NCBI GenBank assembly: GCA_902581695.1
Contig: CACHOW010000002.1
Location: 277 to 64,276 of the forward strand
Length of the DNA stretch: 64,000 bases
Reading direction: 5' to 3'
DNA from: an uncultured Pelagibacteraceae bacterium
GTDB taxonomy: Bacteria > Pseudomonadota > Alphaproteobacteria > Pelagibacterales > Pelagibacteraceae
Positions 7,127-42,623 of this stretch are shown here, piece after piece. How positions within the stretch are numbered: the first letter of the stretch is position 1; each line of letters opens with the position of its first letter. The position numbers were made by a program, and so were the translations under genes. The notes beneath the pieces were generated by a model. That model did no database searches. It saw nothing but the letters and a program-made list of their open reading frames with translations, and had not been told where the DNA came from.

Positions 7127-7165
7127 GCTGTATTTTTCCTTTAATCTTTATTAGTATTCTCACAA

Positions 7166-8539: not shown

Positions 8540-8548
8540 TCAATAAAA

Positions 8549-9502: not shown

Positions 9503-9619
9503 TTCTACTCAGGATTGTATAAAATTAAACTTCTGCGACATCTACACCTTTTTTTAGAAAGACTCTAATCTAAATCTATGTTTAAATTATTCAGTTAATT
9601 AACTACTAGAGGAGAAATA

Positions 9620-10777
9620 ATGACGAAAGAAAATAAATCATTGAAGATTAAAACATCTTCAAGACGTAAGTTCTTTAAAACTGCTGCTAAAGCAGGAGCT
9701 GTTGCTGCTGCTACTGTTGCAATGCCAAACATTGCAAGAGCAGACGGTCATGTAACTTTAAAGATGCAAGCAGCTTGGCCTTCAGGCGCTAATATCTTTT
9801 TTGAAATGGCTGGAGACTACTGTAACATGGTAAAAGAAATGTCTGGAGGTTCACTTAAAATTGATCTTCAACCAGTAGGTTCAGTTGTAAAAACTTCAGA
9901 AATAGGAGCTGCTGTTAGTGATGGTAACCTAGATATGGGTCACTGGGTGACAGCATATTGGTATGGTAAAAATCCTGCTGCTTCACTTTTTGGAACTGGT
10001 CCTTCATACGGAATGTCATCTCAAGAAGTTATGGGATGGATGGAGTATGGTGGAGGAAGAAAATTATATGATGAAGCAGTTGCTTCAGTTGGATTCGATT
10101 ATATTGGATTCTTTCATATGCCTATGCCAGCACAACCTTTTGGTTGGTTCAAAAAGAACGTAACAAAAGTATCTGATGTTAAAGGAATGAAGTATAGAAC
10201 TGTTGGTCTAGCGACTAACGTTTTAACTGCTATGGGAATGGTCGTAAGACAATTACCTGGTGGTGAAATTCAACCAGCAATGAAAACTGGTTTGATTGAT
10301 GCTGCTGAATTTAACAACCCAACATCAGACTCACAGTTTGGAATGCAAGATGTATCTAAACATTACCACTTAGGTAGTTTCCACCAGTCTCAAGAAATGT
10401 TTGAGATACCGGTGAACAAGAAAAGATACAATAGCCTTTCACCTGCTCATCAAGCTATCTTGAAAAATGCTGCTTATGCTGCAAACTCAGATAACTACTT
10501 CAAAGCTTTGGTTAGATATTCTGCTGACTTAGCTAAGTTAATGAATGAGCATAAGGTTAATGTTTACCAAACATCTGATGCTATTTTAGCTGAACAGTTA
10601 AAAGGTTGGGATAAAATAGTAAGTGAATTTTCTGGAAAAGATCCTTTCTTTAAGAAAATTATCGCTTCTCAGAAAGCATACGCTAAGAGAACTATGAAGT
10701 ATCTGTTGATGAATCAACCGAACTACAAATTAGCTTATGAAAATGAGTTTGGTCCAATCGGAAAAGTTAAAATTTAA
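9620..10777 (+). CDS. TRAP transporter solute-binding protein (TakP/keto-acid-lactate type) with Tat signal
   Basis: SRRKFFK twin-arginine signal; GGAG RBS; KYRTVG carboxylate-binding Arg; GGEI, AAEFNNP; followed by DctQ/DctM. Confidence 0.92.
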   Translation: MTKENKSLKIKTSSRRKFFKTAAKAGAVAAATVAMPNIARADGHVTLKMQAAWPSGANIFFEMAGDYCNMVKEMSGGSLKIDLQPVGSVVKTSEIGAAVSDGNLDMGHWVTAYWYGKNPAASLFGTGPSYGMSSQEVMGWMEYGGGRKLYDEAVASVGFDYIGFFHMPMPAQPFGWFKKNVTKVSDVKGMKYRTVGLATNVLTAMGMVVRQLPGGEIQPAMKTGLIDAAEFNNPTSDSQFGMQDVSKHYHLGSFHQSQEMFEIPVNKKRYNSLSPAHQAILKNAAYAANSDNYFKALVRYSADLAKLMNEHKVNVYQTSDAILAEQLKGWDKIVSEFSGKDPFFKKIIASQKAYAKRTMKYLLMNQPNYKLAYENEFGPIGKVKI

Positions 10778-10799
10778 TTAACTTTAAAAAAATTAAATT

Positions 10800-10829
10800 A
10801 AAGGGGGTTTAAAAACCCCCTTTTTTTTT
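10800..10829 (+). terminator. Intrinsic terminator/stabilising hairpin after dctP
   Basis: AAAGGGGGTT-TAAA-AACCCCCTTT followed by a T-run. Confidence 0.85.
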
Positions 10830-10858
10830 ACCAAAATTTACTATAATTATAAATTAAA

Positions 10859-11443
10859 ATGGAATCTTACATAAAATTTGCTGATACACTTAGCACTTCA
10901 ATGGGCAAAGCTTTTTCTTGGTGTATTGTTATTTTAATGGGAGGAACAGTTTATGAAGTGGTTATGGCTTATGCTTTCAATAAGCCAACGTTATGGAATT
11001 TTGATTTTAGTATGCAGATGTATGGGGCGATCTTAATGATGTCTGGTGCATATTGTCTTGCAACAGAAGCTCATGTTAGAGGAGATGTAATTTATAGACT
11101 ATTTAGTCAAAGAACCCAAGCATGGATAGATTTAATTCTTTATTTTATATTCTTTTTTCCTGGTGTAATAGCTTTAGCTTTTTATGGTTATGAGTATGCA
11201 GCTCAAGCTTGGAAGATTAAAGAGACTAGTTGGAGTAGTCCTGCGCAAATTCAAATTTATATGGTGAAATCCATGATACCTGCAGCTGGTATTATGTTAA
11301 TAATTCAGGGAGTAAGCGAGGTGTTCAGATCTATAATTTGTATTAAAACAGGTATTTGGCCTTCACGAATGGTTGTTGCTGAAGAAACAGATAAAATTTT
11401 AATGAGAACCTCTCAGGAGGAAGATAAAAATAATGTTATTTAG
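10859..11443 (+). CDS. TRAP small permease DctQ
   Basis: 4 TM helices, HVRGD motif, lies between SBP and DctM. Confidence 0.9.
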   Translation: MESYIKFADTLSTSMGKAFSWCIVILMGGTVYEVVMAYAFNKPTLWNFDFSMQMYGAILMMSGAYCLATEAHVRGDVIYRLFSQRTQAWIDLILYFIFFFPGVIALAFYGYEYAAQAWKIKETSWSSPAQIQIYMVKSMIPAAGIMLIIQGVSEVFRSIICIKTGIWPSRMVVAEETDKILMRTSQEEDKNNVI

Positions 11444-12794
11444 TCTTACTAATCCAGAAGTAGCAATTTTAATGATGGGAGTATTCCTGTTCGCAGTTTT
11501 GCTTGGTTTCCCTATAGCATTTACGTTAATGGCTATGGGAATAGGTTTTGGATATTATGCTTATTATGATCCAGTTTTAATGGATCATCTTTTTGATAAT
11601 AGAATATTTTCTCTATTTGTAAAAAATACTTATACAGTTATGGATAACAACGTACTGACCGCAGTACCGCTCTTTTTATTTATGGGATATTTAGTTGAAA
11701 GAGCAGGAATTGTAGCAAAATTATTTTTTGCAATAAGACTAGCTGCACATAGATTGCCAGCATCAATGGCTGTAGCAGCTCTTATTACGTGTACTTTATT
11801 TTCTACAGCAACAGGTATTATTGGGGCAGTCGTAACTTTAATGGGATTATTAGCTTGGCCAGCAATGGTTAAGGCAGGATATGACAAAAAATTTGCATCA
11901 GGAATAATTTGTAGTGGTGGTTGTTTAGGAATTTTAATTCCACCTAGTATTATGTTAATTGTTTATTCTGTAATTGCGCAATTATCACCATTAAGATTGT
12001 TTGCTGCAGCAATTTTTCCAGGGTTAATGTTAGCTGGTCTGTATATTGCATATGCGGTCACCAGAGCATGGCTTAATCCTTCAATAGCTCCAAGACCACC
12101 TGCTGAAGATATTCCACCAAGAGCAGAAATTTTAAAAGAGGTATTAGTCTCTTTTGTTCCTTTATTTGGTTTAATAATGTTAGTTCTTGGAACAATTTTA
12201 GCAGGAATTGCTACTCCAGCCGAAGCAGCAGCCGCAGGAGCTTTTGGTGCATTAATTTTATCTTGGTTTTATAAAACTCTCAAATGGCAAAATTTCAAAG
12301 AATCAGTTTTCTTGACTGCAAAAACAACTGCAATGATTATGTGGTTATTTATTGGATCTTGGACTTTTTCATCAGTATTCTCTTATTTAGGGGGACATGA
12401 GGTATTTGAACATTTCTTTACATCAATAAATATAACTACATGGCAATTTTTAGTAATTACTCAAATAATTATTTTTTTACTTGGTTGGCCTTTAGAATGG
12501 ACAGAGATTTTAATTATATTTGTTCCAATATTTTTACCATTACTGGAAATATTTAATGTGAATCCTTATTTTTTTGCAATGTTAATTGCTCTAAATTTAC
12601 AGACATCCTTTCTAACCCCACCAATGGCAATGTCTGCATACTATCTTAAAGGAGTTCAAAAAACTAATGTTGAATTGCTTGAAATATTTAAAGGGATCAT
12701 GCCATTTTTAGGTATAGTTATTTTTGGAATGTTTTTGATGTATATGTTCCCTGGAATTGCATTATGGCTACCAGATGTATTGTTTGCAGACTAA
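11433..12794 (+). CDS. TRAP large permease DctM
   Basis: AVPLFLFMG, GILIPPS, ATPAEAA, QTSFLTPP. Confidence 0.94.
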   Translation: MLFSLTNPEVAILMMGVFLFAVLLGFPIAFTLMAMGIGFGYYAYYDPVLMDHLFDNRIFSLFVKNTYTVMDNNVLTAVPLFLFMGYLVERAGIVAKLFFAIRLAAHRLPASMAVAALITCTLFSTATGIIGAVVTLMGLLAWPAMVKAGYDKKFASGIICSGGCLGILIPPSIMLIVYSVIAQLSPLRLFAAAIFPGLMLAGLYIAYAVTRAWLNPSIAPRPPAEDIPPRAEILKEVLVSFVPLFGLIMLVLGTILAGIATPAEAAAAGAFGALILSWFYKTLKWQNFKESVFLTAKTTAMIMWLFIGSWTFSSVFSYLGGHEVFEHFFTSINITTWQFLVITQIIIFLLGWPLEWTEILIIFVPIFLPLLEIFNVNPYFFAMLIALNLQTSFLTPPMAMSAYYLKGVQKTNVELLEIFKGIMPFLGIVIFGMFLMYMFPGIALWLPDVLFAD

Positions 12795-12800
12795 TAAAAA

Positions 12801-14126
12801 ATGATTGATATATTTTCGTTAAGTGTTGAAGAGATGGCTTCAAAGATTAAAGATGGCCAGTTAACTTCAGTTGAAGTTTGTGAAAAATATATTGAAAGAA
12901 TAAAAAAATTTGAAAAAGATATTAAGGCATGGGCTCACTTTGATAAAAAAGTTTTGTTAGAAAAAGCAGCTGACGCAGATGAACATAGAAAATCAGGTAA
13001 ACCTGTGGGCTCTTTACATGGAGTTCCGATAGCTTTAAAAGATATAATTGGAACTGTCGATATGCCAACAGAATGTGGCACACCTATAAGAAAAGGTAAA
13101 TCTTATTCTCAAAATGCTGAGATAGTTGAGCTGTTACATTCTGCTGGGGCTATTGTGATGGGTAAAACTGCTACATCAGAATTAGCTTATCTTGGACCAC
13201 CAAAAACAACTAATCCTCATGATTACACTAGAACTCCGGGGGGTTCTTCAAGTGGATCTGCAGCATCTATTGCATCTCTAATGGCCCCACTTTCAATTGG
13301 ATCGCAAACAGGTGGATCAGTTATTAGACCAGCTTCTTATTGTGGTATTGTTGGATATAAACCAACTTATGGACTTATCTCAAGAAATGGTGTCTTAAGG
13401 ACCTCGAATGCATTAGATCATATAGGTTTATTTGGCAGAACTGTTGAAGACGTAGCTTTGTTGGCCAAAGTTTTAATTAAAAAAGATCACCATGATCCTG
13501 CAACCATTTATTACTCAGCAGAAAATATTTTAGAGGAAACAAAAAAAGGTCCAGCGTATGAACCTAAGTTTATTTTTTATAAATCAGATTATTGGAATAT
13601 AATTGATAAAAAATCTAGAGAGTCCTTTGAATATTTTATTAAGTCATTTAAAAATATTGAGGTATTTGATACTCCATCATATTTTAAAGATATTCATAAA
13701 TATCACCAAATTATTCATGAAACAGATTTGGCTAATAATTTTGCAATGTATTACAAAAAGTATAAAGCAAAATTATCAAAATATATGCAAACTGCTATAG
13801 CTAAAGGCAATAAGCACTCAGCAAAAGAATATGCTGAGGCAATTGATTTTAAAAAAAGAAGTTATGAGTCTTACCAAGAGGTCTTCGAGGATTACCATGG
13901 TGTATTATCCCCTTCTAGTCCTGGTGTAGCACCTAAAGGCTTGAAGAGTACTGGAACGGCAGAATTCAATAAAGTTTGGTCTTATCTAGGAACACCTTGT
14001 ATTTCTCTTCCATTGCTTGAAGGTGAAAATAAATTACCACTAGGAGTTCAGCTAATAGGAGATCGCTATGATGATCATAGATTTTTAGGGGTTGCTAATT
14101 GGTTGGAAAAGGAATGTAATAATTAA
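12801..14126 (+). CDS. Amidase-signature family amidase
   Basis: GVPIALKD (Lys), TPGGSSSGS, GSQTGGSVIRPA (Ser-cisSer-Lys triad). Confidence 0.92.
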   Translation: MIDIFSLSVEEMASKIKDGQLTSVEVCEKYIERIKKFEKDIKAWAHFDKKVLLEKAADADEHRKSGKPVGSLHGVPIALKDIIGTVDMPTECGTPIRKGKSYSQNAEIVELLHSAGAIVMGKTATSELAYLGPPKTTNPHDYTRTPGGSSSGSAASIASLMAPLSIGSQTGGSVIRPASYCGIVGYKPTYGLISRNGVLRTSNALDHIGLFGRTVEDVALLAKVLIKKDHHDPATIYYSAENILEETKKGPAYEPKFIFYKSDYWNIIDKKSRESFEYFIKSFKNIEVFDTPSYFKDIHKYHQIIHETDLANNFAMYYKKYKAKLSKYMQTAIAKGNKHSAKEYAEAIDFKKRSYESYQEVFEDYHGVLSPSSPGVAPKGLKSTGTAEFNKVWSYLGTPCISLPLLEGENKLPLGVQLIGDRYDDHRFLGVANWLEKECNN

Positions 14127-28226: not shown

Positions 28227-29003
28227 TTGATATTCGATATAGAAAATAAAAGTGTTCATGCATCTGATGCTGGACAAGGCATAAATATTTCAAAAGATAC
28301 AATAGTATTTCTCCATGGAAGTGGTCTTTCCCACATCGTTTGGTCATTAGCAGAACAATTTTTTTCAAGTAAAAATTTTAATGTTCTTTCAATTGATTTA
28401 CCTGGTCATGGAAATTCGGAAGGCCCTTGTTTAGATAGCATTGAAAAAATTTCAGATTGGTTAGAAAAAGTTTTTGAAAAATTAAATTTAAATAATCTAA
28501 TAATTATTAGTCACTCACAAGGTTGTTTAGGGGCCTTAGAATATTCTCTTAAATATAAAGATAGGTTAAAAAAGTTGGTTTTTGTTGGAGGATCATACCG
28601 AATGCCAGTAAATGAAGATTTAATAGATTTAGCCTCAAATGGAGATTCTGAAGCAGTAAAATTAATGATGAAATGGGGTTATGAAGGTTCTAAAAAATTT
28701 ATTGGTGGCAATCCGATAGAGAGAATAATCAAATCTCCTAGAGACATAAGTGAAATCTTAGCAGTAGATCTCATTGCTTGTAATAACTATAAAAATGGCT
28801 CTGAAGCTGCGAAAGCAATCACTTGTCCAGTCATGTTAGTTCTTGGAGAATTAGATAAGATGGTTAATTTAGAATTTGGTAAAAAATTTGCAAACTTAGT
28901 TAAAAATTCCAAGACGCATATAATAGAGGGATGTGGACATATGATTATGATTGAAAAAGCATTTGAAATGAGAGAAAAGGTCTTAGAATTTTTAAAAAAA
29001 TGA
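28227..29003 (+). CDS. Alpha/beta-fold hydrolase within the dmd cluster
   Basis: FLHGSG, DLPGHG, SHSQG nucleophile, GELDKMV, CGHM; overlaps the dmdA start (ATGA). Confidence 0.88.
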
Positions 29004-30109
29004 AAAACTTTCCAATTGTAAAGTCTAGAAGATTAAGAAGCACTCCATATACTGATAGAATAGAGTCACATGGTGTGAGCAGTTATACAGTTTATAATCA
29101 TATGCTTTTACCTGCATCATTTAAATCTTTAGAGGCTGATTATGAACATTTGAAAAAATTTGTTCAGGTATGGGATGTTGCTGCAGAGAGACAAGTAGAA
29201 ATTTCAGGTAAAGACTCAGCAAAGTTAGTTCAATTGATGACTTGTAGAGATTTATCTAAATCGAAAATTGGAAAATGTTATTACGCACCATTAATTGATG
29301 GCGAAGGTTTACTAGTTAATGATCCAATCATAAATAAATTGGCTGAGGATAGATGGTGGCTATCAATCGCCGACTCAGATGTAATTTTTTTTGCAAAAGG
29401 ACTAGCAGCAGGAAATAAATTTGAAGTTGAAATTACAGAACCAAATGTAAATATTTTAGCTATACAAGGGCCTCGTTCTGATGACTTGATGGCAAAATTA
29501 TTTGGAGAAGAAATAAGAAACTTAAAATTTTTCAATTTTAATTACTATGAGTTTAAAGGTAATAAATATTTTATCGCTAGATCAGGCTGGTCAAAACAAA
29601 GTGGATTTGAGGTTTATGTAGAGGATAATTTAGCTGGGCAAGATTTATATGATTATCTTTTTGAAAATGGATCAGAATTCAATGTTAAAGCAGGATGTCC
29701 AAATTTAATTGAGAGAATTGAGTCTGCATTACTGTCTTATGGGAATGATTTTGATAATAGAGATAATCCCTTCGAAGCAAATTTCGATAAGTTTATAAAT
29801 TTAGATAGTGAAATTAATTTTTTAGGTAAAGAAAAGCTAAAAAAAATAAAACAAGACGGTATTTCTAGAAAATTAATGGGTGTCAGAATCGATCATAATA
29901 AAATTGATATGTATTGCGAAAAGACATTGCTTGATGATGATGATAATGTTGTAGGCTATGTCAGATCAGCAACATATTCCCCAACTTTTAAACAGGTTAT
30001 TGGCATTGCTATGATTAATAAACCTTATTGGGATGCTCAAACTCAATTTAAAATAGATATTAATGAAAAAATATTTGTAGGAACAATTTGCGATTTACCC
30101 TTCATTTAG
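29000..30109 (+). CDS. dmdA: DMSP demethylase (GcvT/aminomethyltransferase family)
   Basis: [60 protein letters not shown], typical of DmdA. Confidence 0.93.
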
Positions 30110-31834: not shown

Positions 31835-33606
31835 GTGCTTATAAAATAATAGATCATGAGTATGATGTTGTAGTGTTAGGAGCAGGTGGTTCAGGACTTA
31901 GAGCTGCTGTAGGCTTAAGTGAAGCTGGATTAAAAACTGCGTGTATTTCTAAAGTGTTTCCTACAAGAAGTCATACTTCTGCTGCCCAGGGTGGTATTTC
32001 CGCTTCTCTTGGCAACATGGGAGAAGATGATTGGCGTTGGCACATGTACGATACTGTTAAAGGAGCGGATTGGTTGGGTGATCAAGATAGTATTGAATAT
32101 CTGTGTAAGGAAGCACCAAAAGCAGTTATAGAATTAGAAAAATATGGAGTTCCTTTTAGTAGAACAGAGGATGGAAAAATTTATCAAAGACCATTTGGGG
32201 GTATGACAAAGAATTATGGTAATGGCATCGTGCAAAGAACATGCGCGGCTGCTGATAGAACGGGTCATGCAATTTTACATACTTTATATGGACAAGCTTT
32301 AAAACATAAAACAGAATTTTTTATAGAATATTTTGCACTTGATTTAATAATGAAAGATGGTGAGTGTAAGGGTTTAGTGGCATGGAATTTAAATGATGGA
32401 ACTATTCATAGATTTAGAGCTCACAGTGTAATAATTGCAACAGGAGGTTATGGTAAAGTTTATTACTCAGCAACCTCAGCTCATACTTGTACGGGGGATG
32501 GTAATGCAATGGTTTTAAGAGCTGGCTTGCCATTGCAAGATATGGAATTTGTTCAGTTTCATCCAACAGGAATATATGGTCATGGTACTTTAATTACAGA
32601 GGGTGCAAGAGGCGAAGGAGGTTACCTTACAAATTCTAAAGGGGAAAGATTTATGGAAAGATATGCTCCTAAAGCAAAAGACTTAGCATCAAGAGATGTT
32701 GTAAGCAGATCAATGTCAATTGAAATTAACGAAGGTAGAGGTGTTGGTAAAGATCAAGATCATGTTCATTTAAATTTAAGTCACTTAGATAAAGAAATTA
32801 TTGAAAGTAGACTTCCAGGTATAACTGATGCTGCAAGATTATTTGCAAATGTAGATGTTACTAAAGAGCCGATTCCAGTAGTTCCAACTGTTCACTACAA
32901 TATGGGAGGTATCCCTACTAATTATAAGGGCGAAGTCCTAACAGTAAATGGTTCAGAAAAAACTGTTCCTGGGTTGATGGCAATCGGTGAAGCTGCATGT
33001 GTATCAGTTCATGGTGCTAACAGATTAGGATCTAACTCTTTAATAGATTTAGTTGTTTTTGGAAGAGCTGCAGCAAAAAGAGCAGCAGAGCTTATTAAAC
33101 CAGGAACTCCTCATGAAGAAATTGGAGAATCAGAAACACAAAAATGTCTTGATAGATTTGATAAAATAAGAAATGCTGATGGAGATACTGGAACAGCAGA
33201 ACTAAGATTATCAATGCAAAAGACAATGCAATCAAAATGTGCAGTTTTTAGAACAGAAAAAACCCTTAAAGAGGGAGTTGAAGAAATAAAAAAAACTTAC
33301 GATGGGCTTGATTCTTTATCTGTTAAGGATAAATCATTAGTATTTAACACAGATTTGGTTGAAACTTTAGAATTTGATAATTTAATTAGACAAGCAGTTG
33401 CAACAGTAGACTCTGCTTACCATAGAAAAGAGAGTAGAGGAGCTCATGCAAGAGAAGATTTTCCAAAAAGAGATGACGAAAAATTTATGCAACATACTCT
33501 GGCTTGGTGTAATGGTAAAGAGACAAAAATAAGCTATAGAGAAGTTCATAAAACTACATTGACTAACGAAGTTCAGTATTTTCCTCCCCAGGAAAGAGTC
33601 TATTAA
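31831..33606 (+). CDS. sdhA: Succinate dehydrogenase flavoprotein
   Basis: [16 protein letters not shown] (FAD His), [22 protein letters not shown]. Confidence 0.98.
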
Positions 33607-34385
33607 TGGTACAAATAAATTTACCTGAAAACTCAAAAGTAAAAAAAGGTAATTATTTCAAAGACAAAACTGGCTCAAAAAATTTAAGAAAAGTAAACAT
33701 ATATAGATGGGATCCTTCCACTGAAGAAAATCCTAGAATTGATACTTATGAAGTTGATATGGATAATTGTCCTTCAAAAGTCCTGGATATATTAAATAAG
33801 ATTAAAAATGAGTTGGATCCAACAATAGCTTATAGAAGATCTTGTGCTCATGGTGTTTGCGGTTCTTGTGCAATGAATATGGGTGGTAAAAACGGTTTAG
33901 CATGCACTACTCCCCATGCTGATATTGATGGTGATATAGACATTTATCCTTTACCCCATTTGAAAGTAAAAAGAGATTTAATTGGAGATTTAGATGGATT
34001 GTATAAACAATACCAATCTATAGAACCGTGGTTAAAATCAAATTCTAAATCTGAGACAACCGAAATCATTCAATCAAAAGAAGACAGAAAAAAATTAGAT
34101 GGAGCTTATGAATGTATTATGTGCGCATGTTGCTCGACCTCATGTCCTAGTTATTGGTGGAATGGAGATAAGTATCTAGGTCCTGCAGTTCTATTACAAG
34201 CTTATAGGTGGATTGTAGATAGCAGGGATGAAGAAAGAGAAGCTAGATTAAAAAAGGTTGCAGATGAGTTAAAGCTATACAGATGTCATACTATTTTAAA
34301 TTGTACTAGTGCATGCCCAAAAGGTTTAAATCCTGCAAAAGCAATCGCAGAAATAAAAAAAATGCTAGCTACAGCTAGTCTTTAA
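33606..34385 (+). CDS. sdhB: Succinate dehydrogenase iron-sulfur subunit
   Basis: [33 protein letters not shown]. Confidence 0.98.
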
Positions 34386-35136
34386 ATAAGACTTTTTTTA
34401 GGTTATTCGCAGAAGAAAGCATTATTTTCAAAATTTCTTTTAAATCATTAATATCTTTTCTACTTTTTGCAGTATGAGTTGATAAACAAAAACACAATTC
34501 TTTATTAGAATTGAATATTGGCACAGAGACTCCTACCATCCCATCAAACCATTCTTCATCATCAAAAGCATAACCTTGGTTTTTAATTTTTTTAAGTTCT
34601 TTTTTGAATCGTAGAATATCTGTTATTGTATTTTTTGCGGTTTTAGGTGTTTTAATATTTTCAAATATTTGAATAACTTTTTCTTCTTCTATTGATGATA
34701 GGTACAATTTTCCTGAAGCTGATGCATGTAAAGGAAGATGATCTCCTGCTTCTAAATTTAATTGCATTGGCCAATTAAACTCTATTCTGTCAAAATAAAC
34801 AAGTTTAGTTCCAATAGGTATTGATAAACTAACTGTTTCTTCAATGTCATTTGTTAACTTTCTTAAGTATGATCTCCTTAAAGTGAAATTTGGCTCATAG
34901 GGTAAACTTTTGAGAATTAAATTTCTTATTTTTGGACCAGGAAGATATTTTTTGGAATTACTCGCTACCAAATATTTTTCTTCGCATAAAGTCTCAATAT
35001 GCCGATAAATTGTTGGTAAGGGTATCTTTAGCTTATGGCCAATTTTTTTTGCGGTAAAATTATCAGGGTCAACTATGATTTCCTCGAGTATATTTAATAT
35101 TCTTCTGGGAGATGTTCTGCTGCTATTATCTTTCAT
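34375..35136 (-). CDS. IclR family transcriptional regulator
   Basis: N-terminal HTH ([11 protein letters not shown]), [31 protein letters not shown]. Confidence 0.93.
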
Positions 35137-35163
35137 TTAAAATTAAATTTTTTATAAAAAAAT

Positions 35164-36657
35164 TTAAGATAAAACCGGAATTGTAAATTCTGGTCCTGCA
35201 TTATCTTCTACCCAAGTTACAGTTGCAGTTTTAAGTTTAGTATAAAATCTCACTCCTTCAGGCCCATGCATAGAATGATCTCCAAATAAAGATCGTTTCC
35301 ATCCACCAAAACTGTGATAGGCAACTGGCACTGGGATTGGTACATTTACTCCTATCATTCCAATTTTAGCATTTTCGGTAAAGTGTTTGGCAATATTTCC
35401 ACTTTTAGTAAAAACAGCTGCCCCATTTCCTAATTCATGATCATTTACTAAATTTAAGGCTTCTTCATAAGTTTCAGTTGTCATCATGCTTAAGACAGGT
35501 CCAAAGATTTCTTCTTTATAGATTTTCATTTCAGGTTTTACATCATCAAAAATTGTTGGTCCAACAAAATAACCATTTTCATAACCTTGTTTTTTGAAAT
35601 TTCTTCCATCACTCAATAATTTTGCACCTTCTTTCTCTCCAGTATTTATGTATCCTAAAACTTTTTCAAAATGTGCTTTATTATTTAAAGGACCAAAATC
35701 ACTTTTTTCATCCGTATAAGGCCCAACATTTAACTTAGCAGTTTCTTCTAATAGCTTCGTCTTTATTTTCTCTTTTGTTTTTTTACCCACACAAACTGCC
35801 ACAGAAATAGCCATACATCTTTCTCCAGCTGATCCGAAAGCTGATCCTATGATTGCATCAGTGGTTTTGTTCACATCTGCATCTGGCATTATAACCATGT
35901 GATTCTTTGCTCCCCCAAGTGCTTGTACCCTCTTGTTATTTTTTGTACCGGTATGATAAACATATTCTGCTATAGGAGTTGATCCAACAAAGCTAATAGC
36001 TTGAACATCTTTACTCTCTAGTAAAGTATCCACAGCTTCTTTATCTCCATTTACAACATTTAATACTCCAGGTGGCATACCTGCTTCAATAGCCAACTCC
36101 CCAAGTCTAATTGGACAGCTAGGATCTTTCTCTGACGGTTTTAAAACAAATGTGTTTCCACATGCAATAGCTACTGGATACATCCACATAGGAACCATCG
36201 CAGGAAAATTAAACGGAGTAATACCTGCACAAACTCCCAGTGGTTGCCTCATCGAGTAAGAGTCAACATTAGTTCCTACACTTGTAGAGTGATCTCCTTT
36301 AAGTGAGTCAGTTATACCTGTAGCATACTCAACAACTTCAATCCCTCTTTGAACGGAACCCTTTGCATCAGCAATAGTTTTTCCATGTTGTTCAGAAACC
36401 ATTACAGCCAAGTCTTCCATATTTTTTACTAACAAATCTTTATACTTTGCTAAAATTCTAGCTCTATTAATTGGTGTAGTTTTAGACCATTTTAAAAATG
36501 CTTTCTTAGAATTCTCTATAGCCATTTCAACAGTTGTTTTACTTGCTAACTCAACCTCTGCTATTTGTTCGCCAATTGCTGGATTAAAAATAGGACCTTT
36601 TCGAGATTTTTCATCTGTATAAGTTTTTCCATCTATAAAATGACTAACTTTTTTCAT
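35164..36657 (-). CDS. mmsA: CoA-acylating (methyl)malonate-semialdehyde dehydrogenase (MmsA/IolA/DddC family)
   Basis: GITPFNFPAMVPMW, LKPSEKDP, FVGSTP, ALGGAKNH, AGERCMA, GVNVPIPVP, FGGWKRSLFG; GGAG RBS. Confidence 0.93.
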   Translation of the reverse strand: MKKVSHFIDGKTYTDEKSRKGPIFNPAIGEQIAEVELASKTTVEMAIENSKKAFLKWSKTTPINRARILAKYKDLLVKNMEDLAVMVSEQHGKTIADAKGSVQRGIEVVEYATGITDSLKGDHSTSVGTNVDSYSMRQPLGVCAGITPFNFPAMVPMWMYPVAIACGNTFVLKPSEKDPSCPIRLGELAIEAGMPPGVLNVVNGDKEAVDTLLESKDVQAISFVGSTPIAEYVYHTGTKNNKRVQALGGAKNHMVIMPDADVNKTTDAIIGSAFGSAGERCMAISVAVCVGKKTKEKIKTKLLEETAKLNVGPYTDEKSDFGPLNNKAHFEKVLGYINTGEKEGAKLLSDGRNFKKQGYENGYFVGPTIFDDVKPEMKIYKEEIFGPVLSMMTTETYEEALNLVNDHELGNGAAVFTKSGNIAKHFTENAKIGMIGVNVPIPVPVAYHSFGGWKRSLFGDHSMHGPEGVRFYTKLKTATVTWVEDNAGPEFTIPVLS

Positions 36658-36817
36658 GTTGCTCCTTTTTATATTTAGTTAAAAGTTATACTAGCTTTTT
36701 TTTCAATGCAATATTTTATTCCTTAAATGAGAAAAATATTATCAATTAACGATTATATGCTGTTGACTCATCAATTTAGTTAAGCTTAGATTAACCCATT
36801 AAAAAGAAAGGGATAGC
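36658..36817. promoter_or_regulatory. Divergent promoter region between mmsA and Fe-ADH; candidate IclR operator
   Basis: 160-bp gap, long for this genome; + strand TTGACT(36763)-18-TAGATT; - strand TTGCAT-17-TAACTT (36683-36711); inverted repeat AATATTTT(36710-36717)/AAAATATT(36733-36740). Confidence 0.5.
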
Positions 36818-38005
36818 TTGATTAAAAGAGACAACGTTCGAGTTTGCGTGCCAAGATATATGCAGATTGGTAAAGGCAGCCTGAGTCAACTTCCAGAAAT
36901 TTTAAAAATTATTGGTTCTGTAAAATCTCCCTTAATTGTAACCGATAAGCTAATGGTAAAGTTTGGTTACGTTAAAAAGCTTCAGGAAATACTTTTAAAA
37001 GCAGGACTTAAATCTAGTGTTTTTGATGAGACTATACCAGATCCTACAGATACAGTTGTTTTAAACGGTATTGATATCTTAAAAAAAAATAAAAATGATG
37101 CTGTAATAGGCTTTGGTGGGGGAAGTCCAATCGATACTGCTAAAGCAATAGCTGTACTTTCCCAATATAGTAAAAATATTCAAGATTACAAACCACCATC
37201 TACATTTGATAAAAAAGGACTTCCAATTATTGCTATTCCAACTACTGCAGGGACTGGTTCTGAAGTAACTCATCATTCAGTAATTATTGATACCAAGAGC
37301 AATAATTTTGAGAAAATTTCTTGTAGAGGAGAAGGATTTGTTCCAATAGTTTCAATTGTTGATTATGAATTAACACTTTCTAAACCTAGAAGATTAACCA
37401 TAGATAGTGCTATTGATACATTAACACATGGTATTGAAGCTTATGTAAGTAAAAAAGCAACCATGTTTTCTGATAGAATGGCATTAGATACTATTAGACT
37501 TGTTCAAGAAAATATCTATGCAGTTGATAAAGATCCAAAAGATTTAAAAGCCAGGGAGGGTCTTATGTTGGCAGCAACATTGGGGGGATTAGCTTTTTCA
37601 AACGCTTCTATCTGTCTAGTGCATGGAATGAGCAGACCACTTGGTAGTAATTTTAAGGTCCCTCATGGATTAAGTAATGCAATGTTATTACCAACTATAA
37701 CTGAATTTTCAATTGATCATGCAAAAAGTAGATATGCAGATTGTAGTAGAGCTGGAAATTTTGCATCACCAACTGATGAAGATAATGTAGCCTGTGAAAA
37801 ATTAATTAAAGGACTTTATAAACTAAATAATGATTTTGATGTTCCATCTATGAGCACATTTGGAATTGATGAAAAAAATTTTGAGGGGGAGTTAGAAAAT
37901 ATGGCGACTGATGCAGAAGTTTCAGGGGCGCCAAACCTCAATCCAAGAGTGCCTACTGTAAATGAAATGGTTGATCTTTACGGAAAAGCATGGAGGGCGT
38001 TCTAA
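36818..38005 (+). CDS. Iron-containing (group III) alcohol dehydrogenase, DddB-like
   Basis: GGGSPID, PTTAGTGSE, metal ligands D-TLT-H, LVHGMS, VPHG; TTG start after GAAAGGGA. Confidence 0.92.
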   Translation: MIKRDNVRVCVPRYMQIGKGSLSQLPEILKIIGSVKSPLIVTDKLMVKFGYVKKLQEILLKAGLKSSVFDETIPDPTDTVVLNGIDILKKNKNDAVIGFGGGSPIDTAKAIAVLSQYSKNIQDYKPPSTFDKKGLPIIAIPTTAGTGSEVTHHSVIIDTKSNNFEKISCRGEGFVPIVSIVDYELTLSKPRRLTIDSAIDTLTHGIEAYVSKKATMFSDRMALDTIRLVQENIYAVDKDPKDLKAREGLMLAATLGGLAFSNASICLVHGMSRPLGSNFKVPHGLSNAMLLPTITEFSIDHAKSRYADCSRAGNFASPTDEDNVACEKLIKGLYKLNNDFDVPSMSTFGIDEKNFEGELENMATDAEVSGAPNLNPRVPTVNEMVDLYGKAWRAF

Positions 38006-38060
38006 AATGAGTTGGGAATGTTCTTTAAACTTTAAAACAACTCAAAACAGAGAGGGGAAT

Positions 38061-39125
38061 ATGAAAAAACTAATAAAAACATCTGTTAGCTTTTTTGCTG
38101 TATTTGCTTTAATGATAACTTTTTCATTACAACAAGTTACTGCAGCAGAAAAAATTAGATGGAAAGTACAATCTACTTTTAATACTGGTTGGCCTGCATT
38201 AGGAGATCCTGTTGCTCGTTTATCAGATACATTGGATAGAGCGACTGATGGTAGAATTAAACTAAAGGTTTATGAACCTGGTAAAATACTTCCGCCATTA
38301 GAAATCTCACCTTCAATTAGTAAAGGTGATTTGCCTGCAGCTTACAACTACATGGCATACGACCAAGGAAGAATACCAGCAGCAGTATTATTTGCAGCTG
38401 TACCATTCGGTATGGAACCATGGGAATATGCAGCTTGGTGGTTTGAAGGAGAAGGCGCTAAGTTAGCTAATGAAATATACAACAAACAAAATATTCAAGT
38501 TTTGTTGTGTAGCACGATTGGGCCTGAAACAGCAGGTTGGTATAGAAATCCTATTACAAGCCTAGCAGATCTTAAAGGTTTAAAAATTCGTTTCTCAGGT
38601 CTAGGAGGAATGGTTTTAAATGAAATAGGAGCTTCAGCTACTTTAATGGCTGGTGGTGAAATTTTTGCTGCTCTAGAAAAAGGAACTCTAGATGCAACTG
38701 AATATTCTATGCCTGCTATTGATGAGGTTTTAGGTTTTCATAAAATCACTAAGTTCAACCTATTTCCAGGTTGGCACCAAGTATCAACTTCAACTCATTT
38801 CATGATCAACTTAGATTTATGGAAAAAAATGGGTGCAGCTGACCAAGCTTTATTCGAAATGGCTTGTACAGCAGCAGCTATGAGAGCAATTACAACTGGT
38901 GAATTTTTACAAGGAAAACAGATTGGAACTTTTCCTTCTAAAGGTGTAACAGCTGCAAGATTGCCTGATAGTGTATTGAGAGAGCTACAAAAAGTAAGCG
39001 CTAGAGTAATGAAAGAAGAATCTGCTAAAGACGCTGACTTTGCTAAAGTGTGGGCTTCTCAACAAGCATTCATGAAAGAGTATGATGTTTGGCAAAAATG
39101 GGGTTATTTACCTCGAAACTTTTAG
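38061..39125 (+). CDS. TRAP solute-binding protein (keto-acid/lactate-type subfamily), Sec signal
   Basis: ATG 38061 after GAGGGG; signal peptide; GLKIRFSG Arg, GGEIF, DATEY, PGWHQ. Confidence 0.92.
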   Translation: MKKLIKTSVSFFAVFALMITFSLQQVTAAEKIRWKVQSTFNTGWPALGDPVARLSDTLDRATDGRIKLKVYEPGKILPPLEISPSISKGDLPAAYNYMAYDQGRIPAAVLFAAVPFGMEPWEYAAWWFEGEGAKLANEIYNKQNIQVLLCSTIGPETAGWYRNPITSLADLKGLKIRFSGLGGMVLNEIGASATLMAGGEIFAALEKGTLDATEYSMPAIDEVLGFHKITKFNLFPGWHQVSTSTHFMINLDLWKKMGAADQALFEMACTAAAMRAITTGEFLQGKQIGTFPSKGVTAARLPDSVLRELQKVSARVMKEESAKDADFAKVWASQQAFMKEYDVWQKWGYLPRNF

Positions 39126-39158
39126 TATTTAATACTTAAAAAGTTGATTATAATATCG

Positions 39159-39192
39159 AAAGCGGCCGGTTTCACCGGCTGCTTTTGTTTTT
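39159..39192 (+). terminator. Intrinsic terminator/stabilising hairpin after second dctP
   Basis: AAAGCGGCCGGT-TTC-ACCGGCTGCTTT followed by TGTTTTT. Confidence 0.87.
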
Positions 39193-39205
39193 AAGGAAAT
39201 AATTT

Positions 39206-39775
39206 ATGTCTAAAGATTTTACATCTGTTGAAGGTTCTCTTGATAAAAAGCTTCAGCTTAGACATACACCTATCACAAAAAAAATTGATAATTTCGTTTT
39301 ACAGATAGGAGAAATTTTTAATTGGTTATGGGTAATATTAATTGCAGTGATAATTCTAAATGTAGTCTTAAGATATGTATTCAAAAATGGAATGATTGAA
39401 TTGGAAGAATTACAATGGCACCTTTATTGCATTGGATGGTTAGTTGGTTTATCGTCTACATATATAGTTGACTCGCATGTAAGGGTTGATGTTTTAAGTG
39501 AGAGATTAAGTTATAGAAAAAAATTATGGTTCGAATTGTTTGGTATTTTGATTTTATTTTTACCATTCATAATCCTCGTTCTTTATTATGCTATTCCTTT
39601 TTTTGAATTATCGTGGGCTTCAAGTGAAAGATCGACGTCAGCTAATGGTTTACCAGCAAGATGGTTTGTAAAAGGTTTTTTAGTAATCAGTTTTTTCTTA
39701 CTATTAATTTCCGGCCTATCAAGAATTATAAGAATAATAGAAACACTTCGGTTTGGACTAGAGGATAAAAGATGA
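39206..39775 (+). CDS. TRAP small permease DctQ
   Basis: EELQWHLY, HVRVD, GLPARW; 4 TM helices. Confidence 0.92.
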   Translation: MSKDFTSVEGSLDKKLQLRHTPITKKIDNFVLQIGEIFNWLWVILIAVIILNVVLRYVFKNGMIELEELQWHLYCIGWLVGLSSTYIVDSHVRVDVLSERLSYRKKLWFELFGILILFLPFIILVLYYAIPFFELSWASSERSTSANGLPARWFVKGFLVISFFLLLISGLSRIIRIIETLRFGLEDKR

Positions 39776-41136
39776 TTTCATTAGTTACAGAATATTTTTT
39801 AGCAATTGCCTTATTTTTTAGTTTTATAACCTTAATATTTTATGGATTTCCCGTAGCATGGACTATGGGCGGTTTGGGAGTTTTATTTATATTTATCTCA
39901 ATGCTTTCTGATAACTTATTTGACACTTTTTATGGGGTGGATTTTGGGTTTGCATCTATGGTTGTTTACAGACTTTATGGAGTCATGGCAAACTGGGTTT
40001 TAGTTGCATTGCCAATGTTTATTTTTATGGGAATCATGATGGATAAGTCTGGCATTGCAGAGGATCTAATGACTGATCTATCTAAGTTATTTGGTAAAAC
40101 AAGAGGCGGACTTGCAATTTCAATTGTATTTATTGGAGTTTTACTTGCTGCCTCCACAGGAATTATTGGTGCTGCAGTAGTGTTGTTAACCATATTAGGT
40201 GTGCCTTTGATGTTAAAAAATAATTATAATCCAAACTTAGCTTGTGGAGTTGTTTGCGCAACTGGGACTTTAGGAATTTTGATACCACCAAGTATTATGT
40301 TAGTTATTATGGGTGACCAAGTGAGAATATCAGTAGGTGATTTATTTATGGGTGCTGTATTCCCTGGGCTATTACTTGGACTATTGTACACAATCTTTAT
40401 TGTTGTTTATGCTTATATGAACCCAAAAGCAGCACCATTACCAAAAGATGCAGAACCAGTAGACTTAAAAATAGTTTTAAGAGTTTTAAAATCTATCATA
40501 CCACCAGCTTTATTAATCTTTGCTGTTTTAGGAAGTATATTTATGGGAATTGCAACTCCAACAGAAGCGTCAGGAGTTGGAGCTTTAGGAGCATCTTTAT
40601 TAGCTATAGTTAGAGGAAGGTTGTCATTTTCAGATTTAAAAATTGTAATTAGAAAAACAACTCATACCACCGCATATATTTTTGCACTTTTTGTTGGTGC
40701 AACAATGTTTGCATTAATTTTAAGAGGTTTAGGTGGTGATGAATTAATAGAGGGAGCTCTTAAAGCATTACCTTTTGGAACCAGTGGAGTTGTAATTGTT
40801 GTTTTGTTTGTGGCGTTTTTGCTAGGGTTCTTTTTAGATTGGATTGAAATTACATTGATAATTTTACCATTTCTGGCTCCAGTAATGATGGACTTGGGAG
40901 TTGATATGGTTTGGTTTATCGTAATGTTTGCAGTGGTTTTACAAACTTCATTTATAACCCCACCAGTCGGTTTTGCTCTTTTTTATATGAAAGGTGTAGC
41001 TCCACAGGGTATTTCAATAATGAATATTTACAAAGGTATAATACCATTCGTAATTCTTCAAGTTATAGCTGTTGCTATTGTATTTAATTTTCCAGAAATA
41101 GTTACTTGGTTACCAAAAGTAGCTTACGGTCCATAA
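39772..41136 (+). CDS. TRAP large permease DctM
   Basis: ALPMFIFMG, GTLGILIPPS, ATPTEAS, QTSFITPP. Confidence 0.94.
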   Translation: MISLVTEYFLAIALFFSFITLIFYGFPVAWTMGGLGVLFIFISMLSDNLFDTFYGVDFGFASMVVYRLYGVMANWVLVALPMFIFMGIMMDKSGIAEDLMTDLSKLFGKTRGGLAISIVFIGVLLAASTGIIGAAVVLLTILGVPLMLKNNYNPNLACGVVCATGTLGILIPPSIMLVIMGDQVRISVGDLFMGAVFPGLLLGLLYTIFIVVYAYMNPKAAPLPKDAEPVDLKIVLRVLKSIIPPALLIFAVLGSIFMGIATPTEASGVGALGASLLAIVRGRLSFSDLKIVIRKTTHTTAYIFALFVGATMFALILRGLGGDELIEGALKALPFGTSGVVIVVLFVAFLLGFFLDWIEITLIILPFLAPVMMDLGVDMVWFIVMFAVVLQTSFITPPVGFALFYMKGVAPQGISIMNIYKGIIPFVILQVIAVAIVFNFPEIVTWLPKVAYGP

Positions 41137-41153
41137 AATAGAAATTAATAGAT

Positions 41154-41597
41154 ATGAAAAAAGTAAAATTAATTATCGTGACCATATTTGTATTAAGTTT
41201 ATCAAATCTTGTAAAAGCTGATTTGAATAATTCTTTAAAGAAATATCTAGATGGAAAAGATCTAGAAAAAGGATCTACACAAATATACCTCCTTAAAAGG
41301 TGTAGTGCAGTTTATGCCTATGCCTCTGGTATTGTTCTTAAATCAGATGCTGTTTCTTCAAAAAATTTTATAGAGATCTCTAATAATTTATTATTTAAGT
41401 CTGTAGAGTTAATGGTTATTGATGAAAATAAAAAACTTGAAGAAGCTCAGGCAGAGGCTGAAAAAAATAGGAAAGAGTTATTCAGTAATTACATAGCTGA
41501 TGGTAAAAAAAATTGGGAAAAAAACAAATCCCACTTTAAGGGGTCATATATATCTGAGGATATGGCTATCTGCTCCAAGTTGACTGAAGAAAATTAA
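41154..41597 (+). CDS. Hypothetical exported protein with two Cys
   Basis: 147 aa, signal peptide (VKA), RCSAVY and EDMAIC segments. Confidence 0.75.
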   Translation: MKKVKLIIVTIFVLSLSNLVKADLNNSLKKYLDGKDLEKGSTQIYLLKRCSAVYAYASGIVLKSDAVSSKNFIEISNNLLFKSVELMVIDENKKLEEAQAEAEKNRKELFSNYIADGKKNWEKNKSHFKGSYISEDMAICSKLTEEN

Positions 41598-41657
41598 AAT
41601 AAAAAACTAATTTTTTATTGAATAATTATGAGTTATCAATAAAAGATAAGCTCATTC

Positions 41658-42623
41658 ATGAAAAAAAAAATTTCTTTAATTGGCGCAGGACAAATAGGTG
41701 GAACGCTTGCACATTTAATAGGAACAAAAGAATTAGTAGATGAAGTAGTCTTGTTTGATGTAGCTAGCGGAATAGCTAAAGGTAAAGCTCTAGATATTGC
41801 ACAATCTTCATCGGTAGATGGTTTTAATGTAAGCTTTAAAGGCACCGATGATTATAAGGATATAAAAGACTCCAATGTAATTATTATTACAGCTGGAGTT
41901 CCAAGAAAACCTGGAATGAGTAGAGATGATCTGCTTGGTATTAATTTAAAAATTATTAAACAGGTTGCTGAAGGAATAAAACAAAATGCTCCAAACGCAT
42001 TTGTGATATGTATTACTAATCCTTTAGATGTTATGGTTATGGCTTTCCAAAAATTTTCTGGTCTACCCTCAAACAAAGTAGTTGGCATGGCTGGGATATT
42101 AGACAGTTCTAGATTTAAATTATTTTTATCATTAGAATTAAACGTTCCTGTAAAAGAAATAGATGCAATGGTCATGGGTGGTCATGGAGATACTATGGTT
42201 CCAATGCCAAGATTTACAAAAGTTTCAGGAAAACCCTTACTAGATTTAGTTAAAGAAGGAAAAATAACAAAAGAAAGATTAGAAGAAATAAATCAAAGAA
42301 CAAGAGATGGTGGTGCTGAAATTGTTAAGCACCTTGAAAAAGGTTCAGCATTTTATGCTCCTGCAGCGTCTGGTATTCAAATGGCTGAAGCATATCTAAA
42401 TGATGAAAAAAAATCATTACCTTGTGCTGTTCAATTGAATGGAGAATATGGAGTAAAAGATGTTTATGCAGGAGTTCCAGTTATAATTGGAAAAAATGGT
42501 GTTGAAAAAATAGAACAGATTGATTTAGACGAAAAAGAAAAAAAAGAATTTATACACTCCATAGAGGCAGTGAAAGCCCTCTGGGAAGCAGCATCTAAAA
42601 TAGACCCTGATCTTTCTAAATAA
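41658..42623 (+). CDS. mdh: Malate dehydrogenase (LDH-like)
   Basis: [33 protein letters not shown]. Confidence 0.97.

Follow-up and report, generated by a model that had tools for sequence, protein, structure and literature searches.

The window (the whole stretch of 64,000 nucleotides analysed here, taken from a Pelagibacteraceae assembly that is 68% complete) carries a six-gene cassette in the slot between sdhB and mdh. The cassette encodes an IclR regulator (iclR), a methylmalonate-semialdehyde dehydrogenase (MMSDH) homologue (mmsA), an iron-containing alcohol dehydrogenase (Fe-ADH) and the three subunits that make up a TRAP (tripartite ATP-independent periplasmic) transporter (dctP, dctQ, dctM). 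It is read, with modest confidence, as a catabolic unit whose substrate is a free, short 3-hydroxy-monocarboxylic acid, with 3-hydroxypropionate (3-HP) as the most probable one. The ligand and the enzyme substrates are those that we infer from comparative genomics. On this reading, the cassette would be a TRAP-coupled, IclR-controlled new variant of the dddBC-type route of 3-HP oxidation.

Conservation and spread of the cassette

The unit is a conserved cassette and not a chance neighbourhood, because its gene set recurs in the SAR11 slot and in other taxa, always with the operator described below. An earlier note on this DNA, made from the sequence alone, had described divergent mmsA-iclR and Fe-ADH-dctPQM units sharing a 160-bp gap between sdhB and mdh; coordinates and family models agree with it. 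Its proposal of a self-contained module for import and two-step oxidation of a 3-hydroxy acid is upheld and strengthened.

Besides the window, four SAR11 genomes (two genera) have all six genes in the sdhB/mdh slot, and other orders and classes repeat the gene set in about 20 loci. Type A: loci with binding-protein orthologues 68-84% identical to that of the window, found by scanning a genome collection with the binding protein. Their hosts are Methyloligellaceae, other Hyphomicrobiales, Pelagibius, several Rhodobacteraceae, Arenicella, Cellvibrionaceae and other gammaproteobacterial metagenome-assembled genomes (MAGs). Counts for type A refer to the 26 non-SAR11 loci of sufficient length. An orthologous Fe-ADH (57-64% identical) lies directly upstream of dctP or near it in 18 of these, and a glucose-methanol-choline (GMC) oxidoreductase stands in its stead in two (L067, L088). 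Orthologous MmsA (58-68%) is found in 11 and a divergent MMSDH-like aldehyde dehydrogenase (ALDH) in four; IclR (47-53% identical to that of the window) is present in 23. DctM is 71-77% identical across the other orders and classes. Type B: loci with the gene order dctPQM, Fe-ADH, mmsA, iclR and a binding protein 50-57% identical to that of the window. Type B hosts are Neptuniibacter, Marinomonas fungiae, Motiliproteus, Colwellia, Neptunomonas and Marinobacterium.

Among marine Proteobacteria the cassette is horizontally mobile; in SAR11 it is an accessory unit. Its GC content (0.32-0.34) equals that of the flanks, so base composition gives no sign of recent transfer. The genes next to the cassette in Roseovarius and in Pelagibius encode aconitase, ABC transporters and redoxins, none of related function, and no additional pathway genes are conserved next to the cassette in these two hosts.

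Some loci with the same binding protein have other partners. In three Arenicellales/Poriferihabitaceae MAGs (L065:5421-11141, L066, L070), a gene for an 819-aa DAO+GCV_T protein resembling dimethylglycine dehydrogenase lies directly upstream of dctPQM; the binding protein is 72-76% identical to that of the window, with an identical predicted pocket, and no IclR, operator, Fe-ADH or MmsA is found nearby. Three other loci (L075, L076, L091, about 7000-14000) have iclR, operator and dctPQM without Fe-ADH. Downstream and convergent are genes for phosphonoacetaldehyde dehydrogenase (TIGR03250, 788 bits) and for a protein of the phosphodiesterase family.

Regulator and operator

The window IclR aligns over its full length to the PcaR/PcaU model (residues 12-250), and its Pfam helix-turn-helix match is slightly under the cut-off (22.1 vs 25). 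Among type A cassettes, the consensus operator is TTAAATGAGAAA-N5-TTATCATTTAA. Every type A cassette has it upstream of Fe-ADH, or of dctP where Fe-ADH is missing. It usually abuts TTGACA and forms an AT island within GC-rich genomes. The strict operator pattern has 26 matches in 2.68 Mb of retrieved loci, all at that position, and zero matches in the type B or ddd loci of the same 2.68 Mb. The window copy is one base off the strict pattern. When the divergent intergenic regions of five SAR11 cassettes are aligned, the sole invariant block is CTTAAATGAGAAAA..TTATCA, and the flanks diverge. The TTGAC beside the operator is conserved in other taxa.

The palindrome is the expected IclR operator, as judged from these alignments, and we infer that IclR is the likely repressor of both divergent units. 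Conservation of the operator with the cassette shows that the regulator is passed on jointly with its site and the structural genes.

The dehydrogenase and its relation to DddB

The window Fe-ADH is not a strict DddB; DddB is its closest relative with an assigned role. DddD converts imported dimethylsulfoniopropionate (DMSP) to 3-HP or 3-HP-CoA (PMC10746254, PMC9327192). The conversion of 3-HP to malonate semialdehyde and on to acetyl-CoA is attributed to DddB and DddC. In Marinomonas fungiae the ddd cluster, identified by context, comprises dddD-dddT divergent from dddB-dddC-dddR, where DddD is an 837-aa double CoA-transferase, DddT a BCCT transporter and DddR a LysR regulator. The window Fe-ADH matches this DddB with 401 bits and 49% identity (47-51% across the DddB group). 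It stays under every NCBIfam cut-off (best model, 271 bits; best PDB chain, 221 bits). The metal ligands of FucO (1rrm; D196, H200, H263, H277) are matched by IDTLTH, LVHG and VPHG. Its neighbour is a DddC-type MMSDH, mmsA being divergent and 160 bp off.

A scan with DddB gave 80 loci, and dddD adjoins the gene in 46 of the 85 DddB-group rows. Many dddD clusters also have iclR between dddC and dddR, an arrangement shared by the ddd cluster of SAR92 (PMC10746254). In at least 12 gammaproteobacterial loci, dddB-dddC stands immediately behind dctPQM and is followed by iclR. The DddB of these TRAP-linked pairs is 76-78% identical to the DddD-linked DddB of Marinomonas, and DddD-linked and TRAP-linked rows intermix at short distances in the Fe-ADH tree. 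No DddD or DddT homologue was found in SAR11 or type A loci. Since TRAP stands in place of DddT and DddD, the source of 3-HP, the simplest reading is that TRAP imports free 3-HP; this swap of context is the best evidence for such import.

In the same tree, the window falls in a separate clade that is TRAP-linked throughout (support 99), outside the DddB clade. A wider tree (FastTree) includes 55 more sequences from the best 150 representatives of 50%-identity clusters drawn from 1.84 billion proteins. The type A clade (support 100) there neighbours a DddB-containing group, with support 84. The earlier note had likened the Fe-ADH and the MMSDH to DddB and DddC, and this is borne out. Its statement that ddd clusters typically use LysR and BCCT, not IclR and TRAP, is contradicted by the many dddD clusters with iclR and by the loci, at least 12, with dctPQM-dddB-dddC-iclR. 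The window Fe-ADH is likely a 3-hydroxy-acid dehydrogenase, given these relations.

The Arg of HGMSRPxG, at the position of FucO His267, was considered as a signature and rejected as shared, not diagnostic. It is invariant in all 22 type A and 85 DddB-group sequences; of the 150 best global representatives, 73 have it as well, some with identity as low as 34%. The contexts of three uncharacterised Fe-ADH clusters (P0125, P0126, P0127) are short contigs or unrelated neighbours. An Amphritea MAG has, besides a regular dddB, a second and divergent gene for a DddB-like Fe-ADH beside dddD (L105:1702-2871; 58% identical to DddB).

The semialdehyde dehydrogenase

The window MmsA is, by its family scores, a CoA-acylating (methyl)malonate-semialdehyde dehydrogenase of the cassette type. 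It matches solved MMSDHs, including 4zz7, with 615-621 bits and 58-60% identity. The motif GSAGERCMA, with the catalytic Cys, is present; the Arg of ERC is presumably, as in the Bacillus subtilis enzyme, the carboxylate-binding residue before that Cys. Since the ALDH is a clear MMSDH, the aldehyde would be the semialdehyde of a 3-oxo acid and the alcohol a 3-hydroxy acid.

The binding protein

The binding protein aligns without gaps to TakP (2hzk; 183 bits, about 38% identity). The dctP open reading frame opens at 37962, and the signal peptide, MKKLIKTSVSFF...VTA/AEK, begins at 38061, the start given by the earlier note. With this start, the precursor has 354 residues, whose numbers coincide with those of TakP; the mature protein spans about residues 29-354. 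In TakP, R177 and Y100 are the carboxylate ligands, Q156/E214/E240 the cation ligands, and V97, Y99, T153, P243 and V245 form a hydrophobic pocket (PMC1839085). The window keeps R177 and Y100; the Arg of KIRFSG, named as carboxylate-binding in the earlier note, is the one that aligns to Arg177. The cation site reads E156/E214/Q240 vs Q156/E214/E240 in TakP, and the five pocket residues are replaced by Y, A, I, T and T, respectively.

R177, Y100, E156, E214 and Q240 are invariant in all orthologues, and R177 is invariant in 43 homologues. Type A proteins, from SAR11 to gammaproteobacteria, show no or almost no variation at any of the 21 mapped positions, and the orthologues of Roseovarius, Leisingera and Pelagibius match the window in their whole predicted pocket. 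Types A and B have a pocket core in common: F40, L47, Y100, D101, Q102, I153, E156, R177, E214, Q240 and T243. This conservation points to one ligand class for both types, other than the keto acids of TakP. An AlphaFold model made from a 16-row alignment has a mean predicted local distance difference test (pLDDT) score of 64, with binding-site segments below 50, and was set aside as of insufficient quality. The literature searched gave no description of a 3-HP TRAP transporter.

The SAR11 slot and the native mmsA

The cassette is rare in SAR11. The earlier note had proposed a presence/absence survey across SAR11 genomes, and the sampling yields a binding-protein orthologue in 11 of 400 Pelagibacteraceae genomes (g1, 7/136; g5, 2/137; g17, 2/12). 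Among high-quality genomes the figure is 8/173, the window's own genome included. An Fe-ADH orthologue is found in five of 200 sampled genomes of the family. About 45 Pelagibacterales records have a binding protein at least 92% identical, among them those of cultured HIMB4, HIMB1709, Uisw_130 and Uisw_116. The search for Fe-ADH homologues returned thousands of metagenome sequences (96-100% identical), for which the sole name is 'alcohol dehydrogenase class IV'.

A single MMSDH, 57-62% identical to that of the window, is encoded in almost every sampled Pelagibacteraceae genome. In a cassette-less genome (G008), this native mmsA lies exactly between sdhB and mdh and is co-directional with both (L098:8823-10316). 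Complete cassette-bearing genomes have the cassette-type MmsA only. In the MmsA tree, the SAR11 cassette MmsA joins the type A MmsA of other taxa (support 99), apart from the native SAR11 clade (support 100) and from gammaproteobacterial DddC (support 100). The cassette has replaced the native mmsA allele at the same slot, or the reverse.

One MAG (G028) has both mmsA alleles, on separate contigs. In a distant, uncultured Pelagibacterales MAG (L175:3480-10217; also L172), the sdhB-mdh slot holds genes for a Na/Ca exchanger, a native-type MmsA, an AFG1-like ATPase and a DddB. This DddB is of the gammaproteobacterial type, 70% identical to that of Marinomonas, and the slot has no TRAP genes. Here a DddB-family gene seems to have been joined to mmsA a second time, independently. 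Both cases fit a polymorphic slot. Across most Pelagibacteraceae the native mmsA lies a few genes downstream of dmdCBA. One speculation is that it is tied to DMSP demethylation, malonate semialdehyde being a plausible product of the breakdown of methylthioacryloyl-CoA (MTA-CoA).

In four seawater metatranscriptomes (four studies), dctP is covered by RNA-library contigs that are at least 90% similar. Summed contig depth is in the thousands for dctP and in the tens or less for Fe-ADH and dctQM (X3, X4, X10), with tens to hundreds for dctQM in X1; these depths cannot rank genes, the runs were selected by content, and sparse cover is no evidence of silence. The presence of dctP in RNA libraries is all that these contigs support. 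A hairpin in the dctP-dctQ gap may serve transcription attenuation or stabilisation of the binding-protein mRNA, and it would fit a stabilised binding-protein transcript. A joint from 35568 to 41884 in the RNA contigs (sides of 22 letters) is taken to be spurious.

Proposed function and alternatives

The periplasmic TakP-like protein would capture the acid, with Arg177 and Tyr100 holding the carboxylate and the E156/E214/Q240 cation site probably bridging carboxylate and hydroxyl. DctQM would bring the acid in, driven by an ion gradient. The DddB-related Fe-ADH would oxidise 3-HP to malonate semialdehyde, and the cassette MmsA would convert the latter to acetyl-CoA, CO2 and NADH, feeding the tricarboxylic acid (TCA) and glyoxylate cycles. 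IclR would sit on the 27-bp palindrome between the divergent promoters until released by the acid or the semialdehyde.

The earlier note had ranked 3-HP as the best candidate and 3-hydroxyisobutyrate (3-HIB) as the main alternative; the relation to DddB and the TRAP/DddD swap uphold this ranking. The alternative substrate, 3-HIB or broader short 3-hydroxy acids, would be oxidised to methylmalonate semialdehyde and propionyl-CoA, which would enter the methylcitrate cycle. This is judged unlikely. TIGR01722 is named for methylmalonate semialdehyde, the cassette MmsA is the sole MMSDH of its carriers and must also do the job of the native enzyme, and PrpB is over its cut-off in all five SAR11 genomes tested. 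On the other side, the nearest Fe-ADH with a context-defined role is DddB, in 3-HP clusters, and the TRAP and DddD-DddT contexts are interchangeable. The replacement of Fe-ADH by GMC in two type A loci also fits 3-HP, since GMC and DddC have been shown by genetics to form the oxidative 3-HP route in Cereibacter sphaeroides (PMC12632250). Canonical 3-hydroxyisobutyrate dehydrogenase (HIBADH; TIGR01692) is over its cut-off in both non-SAR11 carriers tested, G203 and G204 (Pelagibius, Roseovarius aestuarii). Of three SAR11 genomes tested, it is over the cut-off in G041 and not in G087 or G008, the latter two speaking for 3-HIB. Where a canonical HIBADH is present, a second 3-HIB dehydrogenase is less needed. 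The fate of propionyl-CoA was rejected as a means of telling the two acids apart: no methylmalonyl-CoA mutase and no propionyl-CoA carboxylase were found in SAR11 (only AccA/AccD-like carboxyltransferases), but PrpB is present.

The earlier note had taken the 3-HP to derive from DMSP or acrylate and had pointed to the proximity of the cassette to dmdA. That the cassette is a functional part of SAR11's own DMSP catabolism, from internal DMSP through acrylate or 3-HP to acetyl-CoA, is improbable. The dmdA gene is genuine and lies 4.3 kb away, with dmdA, dmdB and dmdC placed 4-10 kb upstream of the cassette. This proximity is a property of the slot, which holds the native mmsA in cassette-less SAR11; cassettes of other taxa are not near dmd genes, and the distance is uninformative about the cassette. 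DddK was identified through its similarity to 5tfz, the solved enzyme of Pelagibacter (247 bits). It is found in cassette-bearing G041, but also in cassette-less G008, and not in the complete cassette-bearing genomes G087 and G058. Presence in one of three complete carriers and in a genome without the cassette speaks against a tie to DMSP cleavage inside the cell, and a periplasmic binding protein implies an external substrate. With this DddK pattern, the cassette looks like a scavenger of an external acid and not like a branch of DMSP breakdown within the cell. In the Pelagibacter genome G041, dddK adjoins a gene of the beta-hydroxyacid-dehydrogenase family (G041:C1:319321-320461; HIBADH-like, sub-threshold).

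It is more doubtful still that TRAP is a TakP-type importer of 2-oxo or 2-hydroxy acids (pyruvate, lactate, 2-oxobutyrate) and a mere neighbour of Fe-ADH and MmsA. In favour of this, the ligands of its best solved relatives are pyruvate, other keto acids or lactate, the Arg and Tyr for the carboxylate are retained together with the three-residue cation site, and in six loci TRAP has neither Fe-ADH nor MmsA close by. Most of the roughly 40 loci, spread over classes, nevertheless link TRAP to Fe-ADH or GMC and/or to MMSDH; the same operator precedes Fe-ADH-dctP or dctP alone; and the hydrophobic pocket of TakP is replaced, at an identity of only about 38%. Least weight is given to another hydroxylated acid with an aldehyde that would suit an MMSDH-like enzyme, for example glycerate, with tartronate semialdehyde as the intermediate, or an analogue that is a sulfonate or phosphonate. 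The divergent MMSDH-like ALDH of some cassettes scores about the TIGR01722 cut-off, phosphonoacetaldehyde dehydrogenase is convergent to TRAP in three loci, and Fe-ADH reaches no curated cut-off. Against this, the window ALDH is far over its cut-off, with 58-60% identity to genuine MMSDHs; the phosphonate genes occur in those three loci only and lie on the opposite strand; and the cassette has no conserved neighbours from a further pathway.

Several points weigh against 3-HP itself. Characterised MMSDHs take both malonate and methylmalonate semialdehyde, and with PrpB present, propionyl-CoA from 3-HIB would be usable. The solved relatives of the binding protein all bind 2-oxo or 2-hydroxy acids and none binds a 3-hydroxy acid. 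A few loci pair the same binding protein with genes for dimethylglycine-dehydrogenase-like proteins or phosphonoacetaldehyde dehydrogenase. The sister relation to DddB is only moderately supported (84, FastTree), at only about 49% identity; many uncharacterised Fe-ADH clusters are 40-48% identical, and a large radiation of uncharacterised Fe-ADHs encloses both clades. Recombinant DddB and DddC homologues were assayed only on acryloyl-CoA and were inactive (PMC8163506), and in-vitro oxidation of 3-HP by DddB was not found in the literature searched (PMC9327192, PMC8163506).

A bolder form of the 3-HP reading is put forward tentatively, as a possibility and not an expectation: the type A binding protein would be the first dedicated high-affinity TRAP receptor for free 3-HP, and in SAR11 the cassette would have overwritten the native mmsA. 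If so, 3-HP would be a public metabolite that is traded between organisms, set free by DMSP degraders of the DddD type or arising when acrylate or uracil is broken down. One mobile cassette, complete with its IclR operator, would let a minority of SAR11, many roseobacters, Hyphomicrobiales and sponge-associated gammaproteobacteria scavenge it.

Implications

SAR11 are the most abundant bacteria of the ocean, and the cassette would widen their diet in a testable way: the claim can be tested in the cultured carriers HIMB4, HIMB1709, Uisw_130 and Uisw_116. If the ligand is 3-HP, a new defined SAR11 substrate is gained, together with marker genes for the fate of cleaved-DMSP and acrylate carbon. 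The conserved operator and IclR could become a 3-HP biosensor. The replacement of the native mmsA is an example of allele swap at a fixed slot in streamlined genomes. A survey of SAR11 strain HTCC1062 covers the 18 binding proteins of that strain (PMC11485210). The cassette binding protein probably lies outside it, because the cassette is accessory and its binding protein is 26% identical to that of the other TRAP system of the window.

Features of the window

The table gives the cassette, its regulatory sites and its flanks.

Table. Features of the cassette and its surroundings; positions are those of the window.
Feature	Position	Strand	Evidence or remark
dmdA	29000-30109		NF009133 552 bits, cut-off 410; 4.3 kb from cassette
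sdhB	33606-34385		Upstream flank of cassette
iclR	34375-35136	-	IclR_C 1.6e-30, 106 bits
mmsA	35164-36657	-	TIGR01722 (MMSDH) 662.8 bits, cut-off 448.5
Divergent intergenic region, mmsA/Fe-ADH	36658-36817		Exactly 160 bp
Palindromic operator, window copy TTAAATGAGAAA-N5-TTATCAATTAA	36723-36749		Predicted
Promoter-like site for Fe-ADH-dctP, TTGACT-18-TAGATT	36763-36792	+	Consensus match only; adjoins operator
Fe-ADH	36818-38005	+	Group III; N- and C-terminal Fe-ADH domains, PF00465 157 bits and PF25137 141 bits
dctP, TRAP solute-binding protein of the TakP-like subfamily	38061-39125	+	PF03480; signal peptide
Hairpin, dctP-dctQ gap	39157-39187	+	14 pairs, 8 G-C, then T-run; genome 32% GC
dctQ, TRAP small membrane subunit	39206-39775	+	PF04290 6.7e-17
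dctM, TRAP large membrane subunit	39772-41136	+	TIGR00786 287 bits, cut-off 268; PF06808
Small secreted protein, 147 aa	41154-41597	+	Signal peptide; slot resident, cassette membership only by co-occurrence
mdh	41658-42623		Downstream flank, beyond the 41154-41597 reading frame

The small secreted protein has no Pfam or NCBIfam family match. Within the genus of the window, it is seen only in cassette-bearing genomes. A homologue in genus g17 also adjoins the native mmsA (G028:C20:1635-2045), and the protein is not found in non-SAR11 cassettes. The gene between dmdB and dmdA (28227-29003) encodes an alpha/beta hydrolase (Abhydrolase_1, 4e-23) and no crotonase; it keeps this position in all SAR11 loci compared. 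The second TRAP system (9620-12794), whose binding protein is compared above, may correspond to SAR11_0266 of HTCC1062, as judged by gene order relative to dmdA. Expression of SAR11_0266 failed (PMC11485210).

Comparison with known systems

The dddB-dddC clusters of the Marinomonas type share with the cassette adjacent Fe-ADH and TIGR01722 MMSDH genes, often iclR, and the nearest Fe-ADH clade. Unlike them, the cassette is without DddD, DddT and LysR. Identity is 49% for Fe-ADH, 52-56% for MmsA and 30-36% for IclR. These clusters are co-linear and free of the operator motif, whereas the cassette is divergent with its own operator.

The route of a GMC oxidoreductase (DddA/Gmor) and DddC, known from Halomonas and C. 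sphaeroides, has the same two-step chemistry to acetyl-CoA and CO2; its dehydrogenase is of another superfamily than that of the window, and no linked TRAP is described for it (PMC12632250). TakP, the binding protein of the alpha-keto-acid transporter TakPQM of C. sphaeroides (2hzk/2hzl), agrees with the cassette protein in length class, gapless alignment, Arg177/Tyr100 and a cation site of three acidic or amide residues. It differs in the permuted cation ligands and in its pocket, where the cassette protein has smaller or more polar residues.

The native SAR11 mmsA occupies the same slot as the cassette mmsA, belongs to the same family and is likewise a single MMSDH copy. It has no adjoining regulator, dehydrogenase or transporter gene, forms a separate clade (support 100) at 57-62% identity, and has the opposite orientation.

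The comparison also takes in the gammaproteobacterial dctPQM-dddB-dddC-iclR units (Neptuniibacter, the second copy of M. fungiae, Motiliproteus, Colwellia), of which no description was found in the literature searched. They combine, as the cassette does, TRAP, Fe-ADH, MMSDH and IclR, and share the pocket core. They differ in that their binding protein is 50-57% and their DctM 62-64% identical to those of the window, their genes are co-linear, and their Fe-ADH belongs to the DddB clade proper.

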